NCBI GenBank assembly: GCA_963422735.1
Contig: OY730476.1
Span: 2,112,001-2,176,000, forward strand
DNA: 64,000 bases
Direction: 5' to 3'
Source: Candidatus Latescibacterota bacterium
Lineage (GTDB): Bacteria > Latescibacterota > UBA2968 > UBA8231
Numbering within the stretch: the stretch's first letter is position 1; each line of letters opens with the position of its first letter. The notes under the pieces were generated by a model. It was given only the letters and a program-made list of their open reading frames with translations. It ran no database searches and had not been told where the DNA came from. A program made the translations under genes and the position numbers. Shown one piece after another: positions 53,923 to 61,505 of the stretch.

Positions 53923-53957
53923 GTCTGTTGTCCCTTCCCATTCACAAGGAACCCACC

Positions 53958-55448
53958 ATGACCGACCACCCCAACATCCTCGTAATAATGACCGACCAAC
54001 AGCGCGCCACTGCTAGCCACCTCTACGGCAACACCTTTTGCCAAACCCCTTCAATGGAACGCCTAGCCGCCGACGGGGTGCTTTTTGAAAACGCAATCAG
54101 CCCTCACCCGCTCTGCGTACCGGCGCGCATCTCGTTTTGGACCTCGCAGTTTCCCCACTCGCACGGGGGCCGGCGCAATCAGACCTTGATGCCGGTCGGT
54201 GCCACGCACGCCTGGCCGATCTGGAAGGAGGCTGGTTACGCTACGGGACTGATCGGCAAAAACCACTGCTTCCAGCGGGAGGAAGATTTGGCACTCTTCG
54301 ACGTGTGGAACGCCTTTACCCACGGCGGGCGAGACGAGGGACCACAGACGCGAGGCATGGACTGGTTCCGGCCGGAAGAAGGTCGCCGCAAGGTCGCCGC
54401 CGAGCATCGCCAACTCGCCCACCAGAATCCCCGCTTTAGCTACAGCACCTCCGAGCTGCCGTTAGAGGACCACTCCACCGGGCTGATTGCCGGGCAGGCA
54501 ACGCGCTTTCTCGAAAAGTACCAAGACCAGCCCTTTGCCCTGTGGGTTTCCTTTCCCGATCCACACGAGCCGTGGCTGTGCCCGGCCGAGTACGCGACCC
54601 TGTTTCCACCCACGGCCATTGACCTGCCCACCTGGCGCGACGACGAATTCGACGACGAGCGCGCTCCCGAGCGCAATCGGGTGCTTTACCAAATGCTGGG
54701 GGTGCGCCGCGATCCGCCCGAGGATCTCTACGGCGTCATGGCCTCGTACTTTGGTATGGTGCGCTTTATCGACGACGCGCTCGGCCAGATACTCGACAAA
54801 CTCGACGAACTGGGGCTGCGGGAGCAGACGATTGTGGTCTTTTGTTCGGATCACGGCGACTTCATGGGCGAACACGCCATGCAGTGCAAGGGCGGGGTCT
54901 TCTACGACAGCCTGACGCGGGTGCCGCTGATCGTCTCTTGGCCCGGGCAGGTCGCCGCTGGAGTGCGCGACCAGAGCATGGCCAATCTGATCGACGTGGT
55001 GCCGACGCTGCTGCACTTGCAGGGGCTGGAGCCGCCGCGCTCAATGCAAGGAGCACCGCTGCCCACTGTGACCGAAACTGCGCCCCGGGACGAGACCTTT
55101 TCCGAATACGGCAGCGGAGGGCCACTTTTTACCATGGCCGACTTGAAAAAGTTGCCTCAGCCCTATGGCCGCAAGACCCTGATCGACACCTTGCAGTGGC
55201 GCGAGGCAGCCGGCCGGTGCAAGATGGTCCGCACCCGCCAGTGGAAGTACGTCCACGACCCTATGGGAGACCGCGACGAACTCTACGACCTCGTCGCCGA
55301 TCCAGGCGAGTTGGTCAATGTGGTTGACGAAGAGCAACACCGCGACGCCCTCGCAGACATGCGCCTGCGGCTAGCCGATTGGAGCATCAATACCGAGGAC
55401 GGCCGGCCAGTGCCCCTGCCCGATCGCACCCACTACGAGCTGGCCTAA
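53958..55448 (+). CDS. sulfatase (formylglycine-dependent family)
   Basis: PNILVIMTDQQR, CVPAR (CxPxR), GKNH, SDHG, ELYDL..DP.E. Confidence 0.9.
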   Translation: MTDHPNILVIMTDQQRATASHLYGNTFCQTPSMERLAADGVLFENAISPHPLCVPARISFWTSQFPHSHGGRRNQTLMPVGATHAWPIWKEAGYATGLIGKNHCFQREEDLALFDVWNAFTHGGRDEGPQTRGMDWFRPEEGRRKVAAEHRQLAHQNPRFSYSTSELPLEDHSTGLIAGQATRFLEKYQDQPFALWVSFPDPHEPWLCPAEYATLFPPTAIDLPTWRDDEFDDERAPERNRVLYQMLGVRRDPPEDLYGVMASYFGMVRFIDDALGQILDKLDELGLREQTIVVFCSDHGDFMGEHAMQCKGGVFYDSLTRVPLIVSWPGQVAAGVRDQSMANLIDVVPTLLHLQGLEPPRSMQGAPLPTVTETAPRDETFSEYGSGGPLFTMADLKKLPQPYGRKTLIDTLQWREAAGRCKMVRTRQWKYVHDPMGDRDELYDLVADPGELVNVVDEEQHRDALADMRLRLADWSINTEDGRPVPLPDRTHYELA

Positions 55449-55454
55449 CGGCTC

Positions 55455-55483
55455 TTGCACAATCGACGCTCGGCCGATATTTT
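55455..55483 (+). promoter_or_regulatory. candidate sigma70 promoter for the thrS leader
   Basis: TTGCAC-17 bp-TATTTT, 20 bp before the leader ATG. Confidence 0.4.
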
Positions 55484-55502
55484 ATAAAGCATGATTCCTG
55501 CT

Positions 55503-55598
55503 ATGCTTACAGTCGCATCCGCACAGTGCCTCAGCGGTTTTCCGTCGGGGCCGACCCCTACCACTGCTACTACTACTACGACCCTGTGCGACGGATAG
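55503..55598 (+). CDS. Thr-rich leader peptide of thrS (31 aa)
   Basis: MLTVASAQCLSGFPSGPTPTTATTTTTLCDG*; 9 Thr, 8 of them in codons 18-27. Confidence 0.8.
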   Translation: MLTVASAQCLSGFPSGPTPTTATTTTTLCDG

Positions 55599-55628
55599 CG
55601 ACGGACTAAAATTTATTTTGCAATCACT

Positions 55629-55662
55629 CCCCGCTGTCGGCTACGATGACAGCGGGGTTTTT
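55629..55662 (+). terminator. attenuator terminator upstream of thrS
   Basis: CCCCGCTGTC / GACAGCGGGG 10-bp stem, 9-nt loop, TTTTT. Confidence 0.85.
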
Positions 55663-55680
55663 CATGCCAAGGAGCACGTC

Positions 55681-57591
55681 ATGCTGATCAAGATCCCCCA
55701 AAGACAAGCCATCGAATACCCCGACGAGGGTTCGCTCAAAGAGATCCTCATCCAAGAGGACAAAGCGCTATTAAAGCAATACATTGCCGCCCGCGCCGGC
55801 GACGAGCGCATCGACTTCCACACCCGGCTCGGCAGCGAGGCGGAAGTTGAGCTTATTCCCTGGGATGCGGACGAGGCCGCTTGGATCTACCGCCACAGCA
55901 TGTCGCACGTGTTGGCGCAGGCCGTGCTGCGCCTCTTCCCGGCCGCGCAGCTAGCGATCGGCCCAGCCATTGACGACGGCTTTTACTACGACTTCGACGT
56001 CGCCGAGCCTTTTACGCCCGAAGACTTGCAGAAGATCGAGCGGGAGATGAAGCGGGTCATCAAGCAAAACCACAAGTTTGAGCGGATCGATGTTGCGCGC
56101 CAAGAAGCGGAAGAGATGGTCGCCAACGCCCCTTACAAACAGGAGATCCTCGCCGACTTGGAAGAGAGCCAGACCTTGTCCTTTTACAAAGACGGCGAGT
56201 TCATCGACTTGTGCCGGGGGCCGCACATGCTCGGCACCGGGCAAATCAGGCACTTCAAGCTCTTGAGCGTAGCTGGGGCCTACTGGCGCGGCGACGAGAG
56301 CCGCAAGATGTTGCAGCGGATATACGGTACGGCCTTTGCCACCCGCGAGGGGCTCGACCACCATCTGGCCATGCTGGAGGAGGCTAAAAAGCGCGACCAC
56401 CGCGCGCTGGGCAAGCAACTAGAGTTGTTCACCTTTGACGACGAAGTGGGGCCGGGGTTGCCCCTGTGGCTTCCCAAGGGGGCGGTACTCATCGACGAGT
56501 TGGAGGACTTGGCCCGCAAGACCGAGCGCGAGGCCGGCTATCGGCGGGTGCGCACACCGCATATCTGCAAGGAGTCCATGTATCTGCGCAGCGGCCACTT
56601 GCCGTACTATGCCGAGTCCATGTTCCCGCCCATGGAGTTGGAGGGGGTCAAGTACTATCTCAAGCCTATGAACTGCCCCCACCACCACAAAATTTTCGCC
56701 GCCGCCTCGCGCTCGTACCGCGACCTGCCCCTGCGTCTGGCCGAGTATGGCACGTGCTATCGCTACGAGCAGTCGGGCGAGTTATTTGGCTTGATGCGGG
56801 TGCGCTCATTGCAGATGAACGACGCGCATATCTACTGTACCCTCGACCAGTTTGAGGGCGAATTCCTCGCCGTCTGCCAGATGTATCTGCGCTATTTCGA
56901 ACTGTTCGGCTTGGAGAATTACCTGATGCGCTTGAGCACCCACGCGCCATCGGGCTTGGGGGCAAAATACGTTGATGACCGCGAGAGGTGGCTCCGCACC
57001 GAGGACATGGTGCGCGGCGCGATGGCAAAGGGGGGAATCAACTACGAGGAGGTACCCGACGAGGCGGCCTTCTACGGCCCCAAGATCGACGTCGAGGTTT
57101 GGAGTGCCATCGGGCGGCAGTTTACGATCGCCACCAATCAAGTCGATTTCGCCCAGCCCGGCCGCTTCGGCTTGTCGTACACCAACGCGGCGGGTGAAGA
57201 GGAGACGCCTATCTGCATCCACCGCGCACCACTGGGCACGCACGAGCGCTTTATCGGCTTCTTGATCGAACACTACGCCGGCGCGTTCCCAGTGTGGTTG
57301 GCACCGGTGCAAGCGGTAGTGCTGCCCATTGCCGAGCGCCACGCCGAGTATGGGGGGCAGCTCCATCAGCAGTTTCTCGCCGCTGGAATCCGGGCCGAAC
57401 TCGACGCGGCCAGCGAGACCCTCAACAAGCGCATCCGCCAAGCGCAGACTCAGAAGGTGCCCTATATGCTGATCGCCGGGGACCGCGAAGTTGAAGAGGG
57501 CAAGGTGGCGATCCGGCAGCGATCCGGCAAACAGATCGACCCGCTCCCGGTAGCCGAGGCCGTCGCGCTGATCGACGCTGAGATTCGATAG
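55681..57591 (+). CDS. thrS: threonine--tRNA ligase
   Basis: RHSMSH, DLCRGPH, GAYWRG, KPMNCP, AFYGPKID, HRA; AAGGAG RBS before ATG 55681. Confidence 0.97.
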   Translation: MLIKIPQRQAIEYPDEGSLKEILIQEDKALLKQYIAARAGDERIDFHTRLGSEAEVELIPWDADEAAWIYRHSMSHVLAQAVLRLFPAAQLAIGPAIDDGFYYDFDVAEPFTPEDLQKIEREMKRVIKQNHKFERIDVARQEAEEMVANAPYKQEILADLEESQTLSFYKDGEFIDLCRGPHMLGTGQIRHFKLLSVAGAYWRGDESRKMLQRIYGTAFATREGLDHHLAMLEEAKKRDHRALGKQLELFTFDDEVGPGLPLWLPKGAVLIDELEDLARKTEREAGYRRVRTPHICKESMYLRSGHLPYYAESMFPPMELEGVKYYLKPMNCPHHHKIFAAASRSYRDLPLRLAEYGTCYRYEQSGELFGLMRVRSLQMNDAHIYCTLDQFEGEFLAVCQMYLRYFELFGLENYLMRLSTHAPSGLGAKYVDDRERWLRTEDMVRGAMAKGGINYEEVPDEAAFYGPKIDVEVWSAIGRQFTIATNQVDFAQPGRFGLSYTNAAGEEETPICIHRAPLGTHERFIGFLIEHYAGAFPVWLAPVQAVVLPIAERHAEYGGQLHQQFLAAGIRAELDAASETLNKRIRQAQTQKVPYMLIAGDREVEEGKVAIRQRSGKQIDPLPVAEAVALIDAEIR

Positions 57592-57594
57592 GCT

Positions 57595-58302
57595 ATGTTC
57601 CGCCGCATCCGCTACATCGCCGGGGTTTTCTGGCAATTTCGCTACTATCTCCTTTGCACGGGGCTGGCGCTAGCCTTTTGGGACACCGCGCTGATCAAGC
57701 CGTTCCGCTTCTTTGTGGTGCTGGTCCACGAGGTCAATCACGCGGCAGCAGCCCTGCTCACTGGCGGCGAGGTCCTCGAAATCCGCACCCATTGGGACGA
57801 GTCCGGGCACACCCTGACGAAGGGGGGCTTTTTCCCGCTGATTAGCGCGGCAGGCTACGTAGGGTCGGCACTGTGGGGGGCGTTGCTGATGTACACCTCG
57901 CTTTATCCGCAAGCGCAGCGTTTGGTGTTGCTCTGCATCGGCGCGGCCTGCGCGGGGATGACCCTGATCTACACGCCGCTGGAGGCGGGGGGGATTGATT
58001 TCGCTTTGGGGATCGGCGGCGGGCTGGTCTTGTGCATCATGGCCTGCAAGTCGAAGCGGATGGCGAGCATCGGCGCGGTGTGGATGGGGGTGATGCTCTG
58101 CCTGTACAGCCTCTACGACTTCCGCACCGACCTGTGGTACTATCCAGAGCGGACGGACGCCGGGATATTGTCGGCCCATTGGGGGCTGAATCCGTTGCAG
58201 GTGCCCTATCTGGCGTATCTGATTGCCTTGATTTGGGTGCTGGTGTCGCTGTCGTGCATGTATCGAGCGATGCGCGCTGTGGCCCTCAATCGGGGGCTTT
58301 AA
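57595..58302 (+). CDS. M50B-like membrane metallopeptidase
   Basis: HEVNH, LTGG, AGYVG, TDA; TM segments. Confidence 0.8.
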   Translation: MFRRIRYIAGVFWQFRYYLLCTGLALAFWDTALIKPFRFFVVLVHEVNHAAAALLTGGEVLEIRTHWDESGHTLTKGGFFPLISAAGYVGSALWGALLMYTSLYPQAQRLVLLCIGAACAGMTLIYTPLEAGGIDFALGIGGGLVLCIMACKSKRMASIGAVWMGVMLCLYSLYDFRTDLWYYPERTDAGILSAHWGLNPLQVPYLAYLIALIWVLVSLSCMYRAMRAVALNRGL

Positions 58303-58407
58303 CAATCGAAACGCCTCCCGGCGGGTTTTCCTATAGCAATTGAGTGCAATGCCCGATGCGCTGCGTTACCAAATAGCGCACGGAATCGACAGAAAGGGAT
58401 TAAAACC

Positions 58408-60177
58408 ATGCGAATGAGTCGGCTTTTCAGCCAGACCTTGCGCGAAGTTCCTACCGACGTGGAGGTAGCCAGCCACCAACTTTTGCTGCGAGCGGGCTTT
58501 ATCCGCCCACTGGCCAGCGGCATCTTCAGCTATTTGCCCCTAGCGCAGCGGTCGATGCACAAGATCGAGGACATTATTCGCCGCGAGATGGACGCCATCG
58601 GCGGCCAAGAGATCACCATGCCGGTGGTGCATCCGGCCGAACTCTGGCAGCGGACGGGGCGTTGGTACGCGGTTGGCACGGAGATGGGCCGTTTCCAAGA
58701 CAAAAACGACCGCGACATGGTGCTGGCCATGACCCATGAGGAAGTCGTAGCCGACTTAGTCAGCCGCGAGATCAAATCCTACAAGCAACTACCTCAGCTA
58801 GTCTATCATATCCAGACCAAGTGGCGCGACGATCCCCGCCCTCGCTCGGGCCTCATCCGGGTGCGCGAGTTCACCATGAAGGACTCCTATAGCCTCGACG
58901 CCGACTGGAAGGGCCTCGAAAAGCAATACCGCGCCCATTACCAGCAGTATTTCAACATCTTTCATCGCTGCGGTCTCGACGTACTCGCGGTCCGCTCGGA
59001 CACCGGGATGATGGGCGGCGAGCTGGCCCACGAATACATGTACCTAACGCCGATCGGCGAAGACACCCTGCTCTTGTGCGACGGCTGCGGGTACTCTGCC
59101 AACCGCCAGATCGCCACCTTCGCCAAACAGGCCAACCCGGCCGAAGCACCCGCCGCGCCCGAGAAAATCGCCACGCCCAATACCACCACCATCGAGGAGC
59201 TGACCGCGCTGCTCGACATCCCCGCGCACAAGACCGCTAAGGCGCTCTTTGTGATGGCCACTGTCGGCGACGGTCGGGACAAGAAAGACGCGTTTGTGCT
59301 GGCGGTTGTGCGCGGCGACATGGAAGTCAACGAGACCAAGCTGGCCAACGCGGTTGGTGCACTCGAAATGTGGCCAGCGCGGGACGAGGAAATACGCGCC
59401 GTCGGCGCAGAGGCAGGTTATGGATCGCCCATCGGCGTCGAGGGAGCACTGGTCGTCGTCGATGACTCAGTGGCATCCTCGCCCAACCTAGTGGCCGGTG
59501 CCAACGAGCCGGGCTACCACTTCGCCAATGTAAACCACGGCCGCGACTATAAGGCCGACGTGGTCGCCGATATCGCCACCGCCCGGCAAGGCGACGGCTG
59601 CCCTAACTGCGGCGCGGCACTGCGCGAATCGCGAGGGGTGGAAGTGGGCAACATCTTCCAGCTAGGCACCAAGTTCACCGAGGCACTCGGCGGTGATTTC
59701 CTCGACGCCGAGGGCAAGGCGCAGCCAGTCGTCATGGGGTCTTACGGGATCGGTGTGGGGCGGCTTTTGGCCTGTATCGCCGAAGAGCACCACGACGAAA
59801 ACGGCTTGGTGTGGCCCATCGCCGTCGCACCCTACCAAGTACACATCGTCCTCCTCGCCAAGGGAGAAGGCGCAGCGCAAGACGCGGCCGAGCAACTCTA
59901 CGCCGACCTCGCGGAGCGCGGTGTTGAAGTTCTTCTCGACGACCGCCGCGAAAACCCAGGGGTCAAGTTCAACGACGCCGACCTGATTGGGATACCGGTG
60001 CGGGTGACGGTGGGGGCTCGCGGTTTGCAGCGAGGGATTGTCGAGGTCAAGCTGCGGCGCGCAAAGGAGCGGCAAGAAACGCCGGTGGAGCAAGCGGTAG
60101 AGTGCGTGGTCGAGCAAGTAGAGAAGTTGCAACGCGAGTTGGAGGAGCGGGTGGTGGAAGTGGAGTACTTAGGATAA
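58408..60177 (+). CDS. proS: proline--tRNA ligase
   Basis: SHQLLLRAG, THEE, RVREFTMKDSYS, insertion editing domain, EVGNIFQLG, GSYGIG. Confidence 0.97.
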   Translation: MRMSRLFSQTLREVPTDVEVASHQLLLRAGFIRPLASGIFSYLPLAQRSMHKIEDIIRREMDAIGGQEITMPVVHPAELWQRTGRWYAVGTEMGRFQDKNDRDMVLAMTHEEVVADLVSREIKSYKQLPQLVYHIQTKWRDDPRPRSGLIRVREFTMKDSYSLDADWKGLEKQYRAHYQQYFNIFHRCGLDVLAVRSDTGMMGGELAHEYMYLTPIGEDTLLLCDGCGYSANRQIATFAKQANPAEAPAAPEKIATPNTTTIEELTALLDIPAHKTAKALFVMATVGDGRDKKDAFVLAVVRGDMEVNETKLANAVGALEMWPARDEEIRAVGAEAGYGSPIGVEGALVVVDDSVASSPNLVAGANEPGYHFANVNHGRDYKADVVADIATARQGDGCPNCGAALRESRGVEVGNIFQLGTKFTEALGGDFLDAEGKAQPVVMGSYGIGVGRLLACIAEEHHDENGLVWPIAVAPYQVHIVLLAKGEGAAQDAAEQLYADLAERGVEVLLDDRRENPGVKFNDADLIGIPVRVTVGARGLQRGIVEVKLRRAKERQETPVEQAVECVVEQVEKLQRELEERVVEVEYLG

Positions 60178-61505
60178 TGTTCGTCGAAGGCCACACCGAT
60201 CAACTCAGCTACCAGGCCGGTGAACAAGTGCGCTTTCACGTGGCCACCAGCGCGGACGAATACGCGCTGGAAGTGGCGCGGATAGGTGCCGAGCGCGAAG
60301 TGGTATGGCGGCAGGACCAACTGCCTGGAGCAGCCCATCCGGTGCCAGAAGACGCTTCGTCCAATGGCTGCGGCTGGCCGATTTCCTGCGAGTTGGAGGT
60401 GCCGGACGATTGGCGCAGCGGGTACTACGAGTTCGCGCTGCGCGTCGAGGACCAAGGCGGCAAGTTCGTGCGGCGGGGGCGGCGCACGGCCGAGAGCCGG
60501 GGCTTTTTCATCGTCCGCCCCGCAGGCCCCACGGACGCCCAAATCCTCTTGCAGTTAGCGACTAATACTTACAACGCCTACAACAACTGGGGGGGCTACA
60601 GCTTCTACGGCTATCACGGCCGCGGCGGCTTGCAGGGGCATCGCGTCTCCTTCGACCGTCCGCTGGCCGGGCTGTTCGACCGCTGGGAGCGCGACTTTGT
60701 CGAGTGGGCGGAGGGCGCTGGATACGCGCTTTCCTACTGCGCCAATTCCGACCTCGAATGGCATCCCGAACTGTTGGACAACTACCGGCTCGTGCTCAGC
60801 GTGGGGCACGATGAATACTGGTCGGCTCCCATGCGCGACCACCTCGAAGCCTATGTCGCCGCCGGGGGTAACGCCGCGTTTTTCAGCGGCAACTCGGTGT
60901 GCTGGCAGGTCCGCAGCGAAGACGATGGCCGGGCACTAGTGTGCTGGAAGCAACAGTTCAACATGGACCCAGCCTACGCCGCCGGAGACTACGCGAACCT
61001 TTCGACCTTGTGGAGTCACCACCTCGTGGGCCGGCCGGAAAACGAGTTGACCGGCGTCGGTTTCCTCTACGGGGGCTATCACCTCAGCCACGGGCAATAC
61101 TTGGACGGGCCCGGGGCGTTTGCAGTCCATCGTCCGGAGCACTGGGTTTTTGCGGGGACGGGCTTGCAGCGAGGCGATAGCTTCGGAGGCGAGCACACCA
61201 TCGTCGGCTATGAGTGCGACGGCTGCGAGTACGCGCTGGAAAATGGGCTGCCGGTACCCAAGGGTAGTTACGGCACCCCGGCGGACTTTACTATCCTGTG
61301 TACCGCCCCGGCGCGGTGGCACCCAGACGACAGCGAGTGGTATGAGCGCTGGGAAAAAGGCAGAGAGGGTACGGCGATCATGGGCGTCTATACTCGCGGC
61401 GGCACGGTATTCACCGCCGGGACAACCGACTGGTCGCACGGGCTTAAAGGAGACGCGACCGTTGCCCAGATTACCCGCAATGTTCTCGACCGGCTGAGCC
61501 AGTAG
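60177..61505 (+). CDS. N,N-dimethylformamidase beta-subunit-like (DUF6605) protein
   Basis: NGCGW, WRSGYY, TYNAYNNWGG, VSFDRP, VGHDEYWS, GYECDG; TAATG overlap with proS. Confidence 0.8.
   Translation: MFVEGHTDQLSYQAGEQVRFHVATSADEYALEVARIGAEREVVWRQDQLPGAAHPVPEDASSNGCGWPISCELEVPDDWRSGYYEFALRVEDQGGKFVRRGRRTAESRGFFIVRPAGPTDAQILLQLATNTYNAYNNWGGYSFYGYHGRGGLQGHRVSFDRPLAGLFDRWERDFVEWAEGAGYALSYCANSDLEWHPELLDNYRLVLSVGHDEYWSAPMRDHLEAYVAAGGNAAFFSGNSVCWQVRSEDDGRALVCWKQQFNMDPAYAAGDYANLSTLWSHHLVGRPENELTGVGFLYGGYHLSHGQYLDGPGAFAVHRPEHWVFAGTGLQRGDSFGGEHTIVGYECDGCEYALENGLPVPKGSYGTPADFTILCTAPARWHPDDSEWYERWEKGREGTAIMGVYTRGGTVFTAGTTDWSHGLKGDATVAQITRNVLDRLSQ

Follow-up and report, generated by a model that had tools for sequence, protein, structure and literature searches.

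A likely threonine-responsive leader-peptide attenuator upstream of thrS in an uncultured Latescibacterota lineage

We analysed the region preceding thrS, the gene encoding threonyl-tRNA synthetase (ThrRS), in a Candidatus Latescibacterota genome (assembly GCA_963422735.1, contig OY730476.1), using a stretch of 64,000 nucleotides, hereafter the window, to which all coordinates refer unless stated otherwise. The results indicate that this region carries what is likely a ribosome-mediated (leader-peptide) transcription attenuator, setting thrS expression according to the supply of charged tRNA-Thr. The same mechanism had been put forward in the original prediction, made from the sequence of the window, and is now supported by comparative evidence, with the antiterminator of the window as its weak point. 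The parts of the element exist, are conserved and covary; from them we infer in what order events occur, where transcription starts, that polymerase pauses and that there is a response to threonine. The mechanism itself is textbook and not new, and it is the gene and the uncultured lineage that constitute the new part, providing a well-supported case of attenuation at an aminoacyl-tRNA synthetase gene.

The predicted threonine leader and its terminator

The element lies in the 232-nt spacer between a sulfatase gene (53928-55448) and thrS (55681-57591), both on the + strand, and the identity of thrS is given by a match to TIGR00418 at 677.7 bits (cut-off 383.65). Its components are the following.

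55455..55483, + strand: putative sigma-70-type promoter, with -35 TTGCAC (55455-55460), a 17-nt spacer and -10 TATTTT (55478-55483)
55491..55598, + strand: predicted leader open reading frame (ORF) of 35 codons and TAG (55596-55598), MIPAMLTVASAQCLSGFPSGPTPTTATTTTTLCDG*, with its frame kept in 31/31 genomes of the genus
55512..55526, + strand: segment 1 of the window's genus, GTCGCATCCGCACAG, pairing with segment 2 as part of the minimum-energy fold
55554..55583, + strand: putative regulatory run, eight Thr in ten codons (ACC CCT ACC ACT GCT ACT ACT ACT ACG ACC)
55584..55605, + strand: segment 2, the proposed 5' strand of the antiterminator, CTGTGCGACGGATAGCGACGGA, spanning the stop codon; its core GATAGCG (55594-55600) pairs with CGCTGTC (55632-55638)
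55606..55628, + strand: A+T-rich spacer, CTAAAATTTATTTTGCAATCACT, conserved in the genus alignment
55629..55662, + strand: intrinsic terminator, formed by segments 3 and 4 (stem 55629-55657) and a T tract of five (55658-55662)
55670..57591, + strand: Shine-Dalgarno word AGGAG (55670-55674) and thrS (ATG 55681, stop 57589-57591), the gene predicted to be regulated

In the mechanism that we propose, transcription would start at or next to the leader ATG at 55491, and a ribosome would translate the 35-codon leader as RNA polymerase approaches the terminator. With Thr-tRNA plentiful, the ribosome would reach the TAG at 55596 and cover segment 2 (55584-55605), upon which the hairpin at 55629-55657 would form and transcription would stop at the T tract, 18 nt before thrS. 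With Thr-tRNA scarce, the ribosome would stall in the eight Thr codons (55554-55583) and leave segment 2 free to engage the terminator 5' arm through GATAGCG and CGCTGTC, so that no terminator would form and polymerase would read through into thrS. If the leader were not translated at all, segment 1 (55512-55526) would hold segment 2, and termination would follow. The A+T-rich spacer that comes after the stem formed by segments 1 and 2 (the 1:2 stem) may serve as a polymerase pause region synchronising polymerase and ribosome. Such a reading implies transcription-translation coupling in this lineage.

The leader had originally been described as a 31-codon ORF with eight Thr codons. Both the ORF and the Thr codons stand, but the 31-codon version takes the second in-frame ATG (55503) as its start, and the relatives favour the first ATG (55491), which is probably the start and gives a predicted leader of 35 codons. 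Thr runs of this density are rare in the genome, where at least eight Thr in ten codons occur at only seven sites in all six frames of 4.95 Mb. Leaders of the core genus carry 4 to 12 Thr codons within their last 20 codons and have four codons between the Thr run and the stop. The Thr codons of these leaders are ACT (82), ACG (72), ACC (70) and ACA (5), against genome-wide shares of 0.13, 0.30, 0.49 and 0.07, respectively, and the genome encodes one tRNA-Thr for each of the anticodons GGT, CGT and TGT; the leader thus uses the rare codon ACT beyond its genomic share and draws on two isoacceptors or more. The small ORF was missed by gene callers, a case from which a rule for annotators can be drawn.

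The 206-nt leader folds more stably than its shuffled versions (z -3.07; 1/200 shuffles as good), and the terminator does so to a larger extent (-21.6 kcal/mol, z -5.3; 0/200 shuffles fold as well). Its stem consists of 11 pairs, eight of them G-C, closed by a 7-nt loop, one pair more than the ten originally counted; the T5 tract and its distance to thrS were as predicted. The hairpin begins 30 nt past the leader stop, and the 18 nt that lie between the T tract and the thrS ATG leave no space for a separate promoter.

Conservation and the leader start in related genomes

Related genomes were compared at three levels, namely the window's genus (g1; 31 genomes including that of the window), its family (f1; 76 genomes in 18 genera) and its class (132 genomes in four families). 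The nearest public records are metagenome-assembled genomes (MAGs), the majority labelled Candidatus Latescibacterota and single ones labelled Gemmatimonadetes or Planctomycetota. The DNA upstream of thrS was taken from 75 of the 76 family genomes, the remaining one having no thrS match, and was assessed with a fixed rule, by which an ATG or GTG ORF with at least four Thr in ten codons had to be followed, upstream of thrS, by a hairpin of -12 kcal/mol or lower with at least T4. This combination was found in 50/75 family genomes, belonging to 9/18 genera (g1 30/31, g8 1/1, g9 1/3, g11 1/1, g15 1/2, g16 3/8, g19 1/4, g21 2/2 and g22 10/10), and in no genome of g6, g7, g10, g12, g13, g14, g17, g18 or g20. 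Taken separately, at least four Thr in ten codons were present upstream of thrS in 31/31 genus genomes and 52/75 family genomes, and a terminator-like hairpin in 69/75 family genomes.

Conservation of the Thr run in frame had been named at the outset as a point on which the proposal should stand or fall, and the run is conserved: frame, start, stop, Thr run and terminator persist in 31/31 genus genomes, and recognisable homologues of them occur in eight further genera. Leader peptides in the genus follow the consensus MISAMLTVASA..SGFPSGPTA-T(n)-MCAG*, and they are recognisably related across several genera (e.g., MSALFP...PAE.SAPST..TTT). Third positions of the Thr codons vary synonymously, whereas start, frame and stop are kept, and the gaps that fall in the Thr run of the alignment (A3, columns 113-133) span 3, 6, 9 or 18 columns, that is, whole codons. 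Between positions -260 and -40 before thrS, at least five Thr in ten codons occur in 43/75 genomes on the coding strand and in 2/75 on the reverse complement. For every other amino acid the coding-strand count in this region is 10/75 or lower, and the 10/75 reached by Tyr are a frame-shifted shadow of ACT-ACG repeats.

The terminator is likewise preserved through compensatory change. In an alignment of 15 sequences from eight other genera, pairing holds in 98.5% of 135 cells, and three pairs, in ten cells, have changed on both sides, giving rise to versions such as CCCGCTGTCG..., CCCACTGCCG... and CCCATCGTCGA...; none of 500 shuffles reached the observed number of double-sided changes, and slid controls paired in 32-53% of cells. 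The distance from leader stop to terminator is 24-36 nt in 25 of the 29 sequences in which a terminator was found and 64-66 nt in two more, the script having chosen the wrong hairpin in two of the 29.

In 25 of 26 distinct core-genus sequences the first ATG of the leader stands exactly 7 nt past TATYTT, as it does in the window, and the -35/-10 pair (TTGCAC or TTGACA, 17-18 nt, TATYTT) is conserved. Deletion variants L017 and L114 have lost the first ATG, and their next ATG is still 6-7 nt from the -10. The 12 nt upstream of the leader ATG hold no purine-rich Shine-Dalgarno word in the core genus; in other genera, GGAGG or AGGAG precedes the leader ATG. Since the ATG follows the -10 by only 7 nt, the leader transcript is probably leaderless in the window's genus. 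The promoter itself was read by eye, with conservation as its support, and an automated scan of the window reported no site at 55455-55483, a miss attributable to the -35 matching only 3 of 6 positions. Four of the 23 public RNA runs listed, all of them available as contigs only, were examined: one run, whose RNA label is a guess, contains identical sequence in contigs covering 55551-55631 (depth 35.3) and 55602-55958 (depth 7.5), data that show neither start nor termination, and contigs of relatives in two metatranscriptomes span the leader and the start of thrS, their ends being uninformative on either point.

These data bear on whether the hairpin could be an ordinary or constitutive partial terminator, for instance that of the sulfatase gene, with the Thr ORF as an untranslated by-product of composition and no sensing of threonine. 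The sulfatase gene has the same orientation, with 180 nt between its end and the hairpin, G+C-rich DNA yields many open frames, and the automated scan found no promoter in the window. The sulfatase gene, however, lies upstream of thrS in 21/31 genus genomes and in only 3/44 other family genomes, and leader and terminator persist with thrS where the upstream gene differs, which indicates that the leader goes with thrS and not with its upstream neighbour. Moreover, the 18 nt between T tract and thrS are too short for a promoter, Thr enrichment is confined almost entirely to the coding strand, start, frame and stop are conserved with indels of whole codons in the Thr run, and comparable runs are scarce genome-wide in all six frames. 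We therefore regard a constitutive terminator as highly improbable.

A second alternative is that the leader functions as an RNA sensor read by uncharged tRNA-Thr, in the manner of a T-box, or by ThrRS, in which case the ACN repeats would be binding words and not codons. Control of this type acts on thrS in model bacteria, and the sister families of the class carry a structured, ORF-less thrS leader with a terminator. However, an Rfam cmscan of 55300-55800 with E values up to 10 returned neither Thr_leader (RF00506) nor T-box (RF00230), its only matches being to the Atu_C7 sRNA model (17.4 bits against a gathering score of 45; E 0.073), restricted to the terminator hairpin, and to a lncRNA model by chance; the loci of seven relatives likewise gave no match to T-box or any other Rfam family at gathering score. 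The free variation of ACN third positions against a kept frame, start and stop, together with a start codon that stays beside the -10 even in the deletion variants, also argues for codons, and we attach very little weight to a sensor of this kind.

Beyond the family, the Thr-rich ORF was absent from all 17 thrS loci sampled in the three sister families, and among 75 more distant thrS loci it was found only at L039, apparently a g16 member of family f1. Within the family, in genus g13 (L120 and L125), a related leader start, TTTAGATGTC, opens an ORF that has no Thr run and reads through the terminator. At L043 and L055, from MAGs labelled Pelagisphaera and Opitutales, a small ORF upstream of thrS contains a common Thr-rich stretch (..TKTITSKTSA..) and may represent a further, independent Thr leader.

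Segments 1 and 2 and the proposed antiterminator

In the eight other genera, the Thr codons lie in segment 1, and segment 2, which sits 10-22 nt ahead of the stop, nearly duplicates the 3' arm of the terminator. Segment 2 changes along with the terminator, as in the combinations of GGCGGTGGG with CCCACTGCC and of GACGATGGTGGG with CCCATCGTC. The helix formed by segment 2 and the terminator 5' arm (2:3) pairs in 84.4% of 135 cells in these genera, with five cells changed on both sides (18/500 shuffles) and a covariation score reached by 13/500 shuffles. Segment 2 finds its best partner in a stretch overlapping the Thr codons in g8, g16, g21, g22 and the divergent g1 members, so the family possesses the textbook 1:2, 2:3 and 3:4 pairings of an attenuator.

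The window's genus is arranged differently, in that its segment 1 lies upstream of the Thr codons and not on them. In the genus alignment, 91.2% of 362 cells of the 1:2 stem pair, two pairs are compensatory, 2/500 shuffles match the covariation, and slid controls pair in 14-47%. All of the complementary words singled out by the original prediction were found at the positions given, namely GATAGCG (55594-55600), CGCTGTC (55632-55638), TCCGTCG (55541-55547), CGCACAG (55520-55526), CTGTGCG (55584-55590) and the two copies of CGACGGA (55589-55595 and 55599-55605). The proposed protector pairing of CGCACAG with CTGTGCG falls within the long-range 1:2 stem with its two compensatory changes, but the second protector, TCCGTCG with CGACGGA, received no comparative support. 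For the 2:3 pairing of the genus, most relatives add GCC with GGC, on the far side of a bulge, to GATAGCG with CGCTGTC, and 98.8% of 260 cells pair.

The position of the antiterminator was examined by sliding a 14-nt window along each leader and computing its duplex energy with the terminator 5' arm relative to the stop codon. Across 17 sequences from the eight other genera, the peak was found 12-16 nt before the stop, with means of -14.3 and -13.7 kcal/mol as opposed to -3.9 to -9.7 elsewhere; in two g15 sequences it was closer to the stop. Three divergent g1 members peak at +8 (mean -14.0), and the core-g1 sequences, including that of the window, peak at 0 in 7/7 cases (-12.6 to -16.8), at the GGATAGCGACGG stretch. 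Every one of these peaks would be covered by a ribosome that has arrived at the stop codon, and none by a ribosome held up early in the Thr run. When the best duplex was instead compared with mononucleotide shuffles, z was -2 or lower in only 7/27 sequences; the argument for the antiterminator rests on its consistent position and not on single energies.

Several observations weigh against the attenuator as proposed, most of them concerning this antiterminator. At the family level, 25/75 genomes have no Thr ORF under the fixed rule, despite a hairpin in 69/75. In the window's genus the Thr codons are in the loop between segments 1 and 2, so that a single stalled ribosome is not obviously able to separate the two, and the antiterminator is invariant, which leaves it without covariation evidence of its own. 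The GATAGCG pairing matches the family in its place relative to the stop, but the 2:3 structure of the window is weak (-13.0 kcal/mol, with 64/200 shuffles folding as well), and the window has GACGG where 25 of 26 aligned core-genus sequences have GCCGG, GCTGG, GCCAG or ACCGG. Ribosome-masked folding, suggested originally as a check, was carried out at equilibrium on 25 sequences with a 28-nt mask placed at each codon, a procedure unable to show a switch. The terminator pair probability was about 0.97 in the window with the footprint at any codon, and the terminator also stayed dominant in the other 24 sequences with their Thr codons masked. As the terminator wins at equilibrium whatever the position of the ribosome, any switch must be kinetic; the terminator of the trp attenuator is likewise favoured at equilibrium. 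When transcripts were truncated ahead of the 3' arm, their 5' arm paired upstream in all ribosome states and the contrast was low in most sequences (about 0.88 versus 0.68), because the G+C-rich 5' arm always finds some partner. Lastly, the 5' arm has alternative partners upstream of the Thr run (GGGGCCGAC... and CAGCGG) that are more stable than the one at the stop codon in some relatives.

These partners give rise to an alternative that retains threonine sensing and relocates the antiterminator of the genus to an upstream partner of the 5' arm, either GGGGCCGACGGC, immediately ahead of the Thr run, or CAGCGG, at codons 14-16. A local hairpin together with the ribosome would expose or conceal these partners in another order. 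The 12 pairs between GGGGCCGACGGC and GCUGUCGGCUCC are the minimum-energy choice in cut transcripts with the stop-codon region masked and reach -21.5 kcal/mol in L002 and L017, and CAGCGG is the best single partner of the 5' arm in the window (-16.4). However, L016 lacks the upstream partner, L015 has it in rearranged form, and it is weakened in the window and in L004, L006 and L007. It pairs in 89.4% of 303 cells but does no better than shuffles (445/500 reach it) and shows no compensatory change, and its distance from the stop differs among sequences, in contrast to the stop-codon peak present in 7/7. An upstream partner would also lie 5' of the stalled ribosome and hence be free in starved and fed cells alike, providing no switch. 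We thus deem this arrangement unlikely. Neither conserved nor covarying, GGGGCCGACGGC and CAGCGG were dropped as candidates for the main antiterminator.

Within the proposed attenuator, the differences between the window's genus and the rest of the family could be understood as a rebuilding of the family attenuator, with the promoter moved against the ATG to give a leaderless transcript, the Thr run extended to up to 12 codons and rich in ACT, and the codons placed in the 1:2 loop, in a family that controls both thrS and tyrS by leader peptides. We advance this combined scenario tentatively, as one that is possible but somewhat less than probable. If the layout of the genus has been rebuilt in this way, separating segments 1 and 2 would depend on further ribosomes queuing behind the one that has stalled, or else on kinetics alone. 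The family as a whole may use leader peptides at thrS and tyrS where Firmicutes use T-boxes and its sister families use a structured leader that has no Rfam match. The family offers a natural series for the study of attenuator evolution, comprising textbook and rearranged forms, leadered and probably leaderless transcripts, and 4 to 12 regulatory codons.

Known systems and other synthetase leaders

Attenuation by leader peptides is textbook knowledge, both in biosynthetic operons and at E. coli pheST. The E. coli thrL leader (RF00506) resembles the element described here in its short ORF with a run of Thr codons, and its alternative antiterminator and terminator hairpins and its stalled ribosome as sensor are those that we propose for the present element. 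It differs in that thrL controls the biosynthetic thrABC genes, in contrast to the synthetase gene thrS here, and in that our leader has no Ile codons in the run, shows no similarity in sequence or model and, in the window's genus, is probably leaderless with its Thr codons outside segment 1. The pheM leader of E. coli pheST follows the same logic, combining a synthetase gene with a leader peptide rich in the cognate codons and an intrinsic terminator and yielding more synthetase when charging falls, but it involves another amino acid and another phylum and shares no homology. The Bacillus thrS T-box and the E. coli thrS operator act on the same gene and respond to a shortage of charged tRNA-Thr or an excess of ThrRS; their sensors are uncharged tRNA or ThrRS on a structured RNA, whereas the sensor proposed here is the translating ribosome.

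Our literature search on thrS leader peptides and attenuation returned no paper on such a leader in Latescibacteria, and among the papers examined only PMC8079986 describes a thrS leader peptide. The original prediction had called the architecture uncommon and probably unreported, which holds for this lineage but not in general: Droste et al. have proposed that a leaderless thrL precedes thrS in Streptomyces lividans TK24 and read it as Thr-dependent attenuation (PMC8079986). The S. lividans thrL encodes two Thr in 18 residues and is accompanied by one hairpin and no U tract, with termination called unclear by the authors (PMC8079986). The two systems share a leader ORF ahead of thrS, leaderless transcription, which is probable in ours, and a reading as attenuation, and they differ in that the leader described here has eight Thr (4-12 among its relatives), is followed by a canonical terminator and is supported comparatively by 50 genomes. 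De Groot et al. describe 14 leaderless leader peptides ahead of tRNA synthetase and amino-acid genes in Deinococcus deserti (PMC4007540); these resemble the layout that we propose in their translation from a 5'-terminal AUG and their location upstream of synthetase genes and differ in phylum. Naville and Gautheret describe His leaders that precede hisS paralogues in Bacillus, with switching between sensing systems at one gene (PMC2965389). The parallel is that one lineage employs a leader peptide and its relatives another RNA sensor, as with the Thr leader of family f1 and the structured leader of its sister families (f2, f3 and f4), although the amino acid and the phyla are different.

The sister-family leader, observed at L024-L030 and L163-L172, is a different conserved thrS leader of about 110-130 nt that contains no Thr-rich ORF and consists of a TTGACA-N17-TATAAAT promoter, a structured region and a terminator. 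RNA upstream in this leader is partly complementary to the loop and 3' arm of the terminator. L024, L025, L028 and L030, which were among the seven loci scanned, gave no Rfam match at gathering score, and the f2-f4 leader may be an undescribed thrS riboregulator.

A second synthetase gene of the window's genome, located outside the window, has a leader of the same kind. Upstream of tyrS (approximately 1366290-1366432 of genome contig C1), a leader rich in Tyr codons, MMQTLRTDRRYLYYTAFHREG*, is associated with a Shine-Dalgarno word and followed by an intrinsic terminator 19 nt ahead of the tyrS start. Among 28 loci of the genus, 25 have at least three Tyr in six codons, with up to six consecutive, and the other three have two Tyr. 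The Tyr codons are complementary to a stretch just before the stop, which in turn resembles the 3' arm of the terminator. This leader supports leader-peptide control of synthetase genes in the lineage. In a genome-wide scan for leader peptides followed by terminators, a strict rule returned only thrS and three unconvincing matches, and a relaxed rule added tyrS amid many chance matches; the terminator finder requires perfect stems, so absence elsewhere is not implied.

Downstream of thrS, a gene for a Peptidase_M50B-like membrane protein (57595-58302; Pfam E 1.2e-30) begins 3 nt past the thrS stop, and proS (58408-60177) follows 105 nt after it. As no + strand terminator was predicted over 57400-60500, control by the attenuator may extend beyond thrS to these downstream genes.

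When compared with its counterparts in MAGs labelled Bacteroidota, Neomarinimicrobiota, Verrucomicrobiota and others, ThrS of family f1 shows 51-65% identity, but its identity to the ThrS proteins found in the sister families of its own class is only 41-47%, and the Thr leader is seen only with the f1 type of ThrS. Judged from these identities, thrS could have been replaced in family f1.

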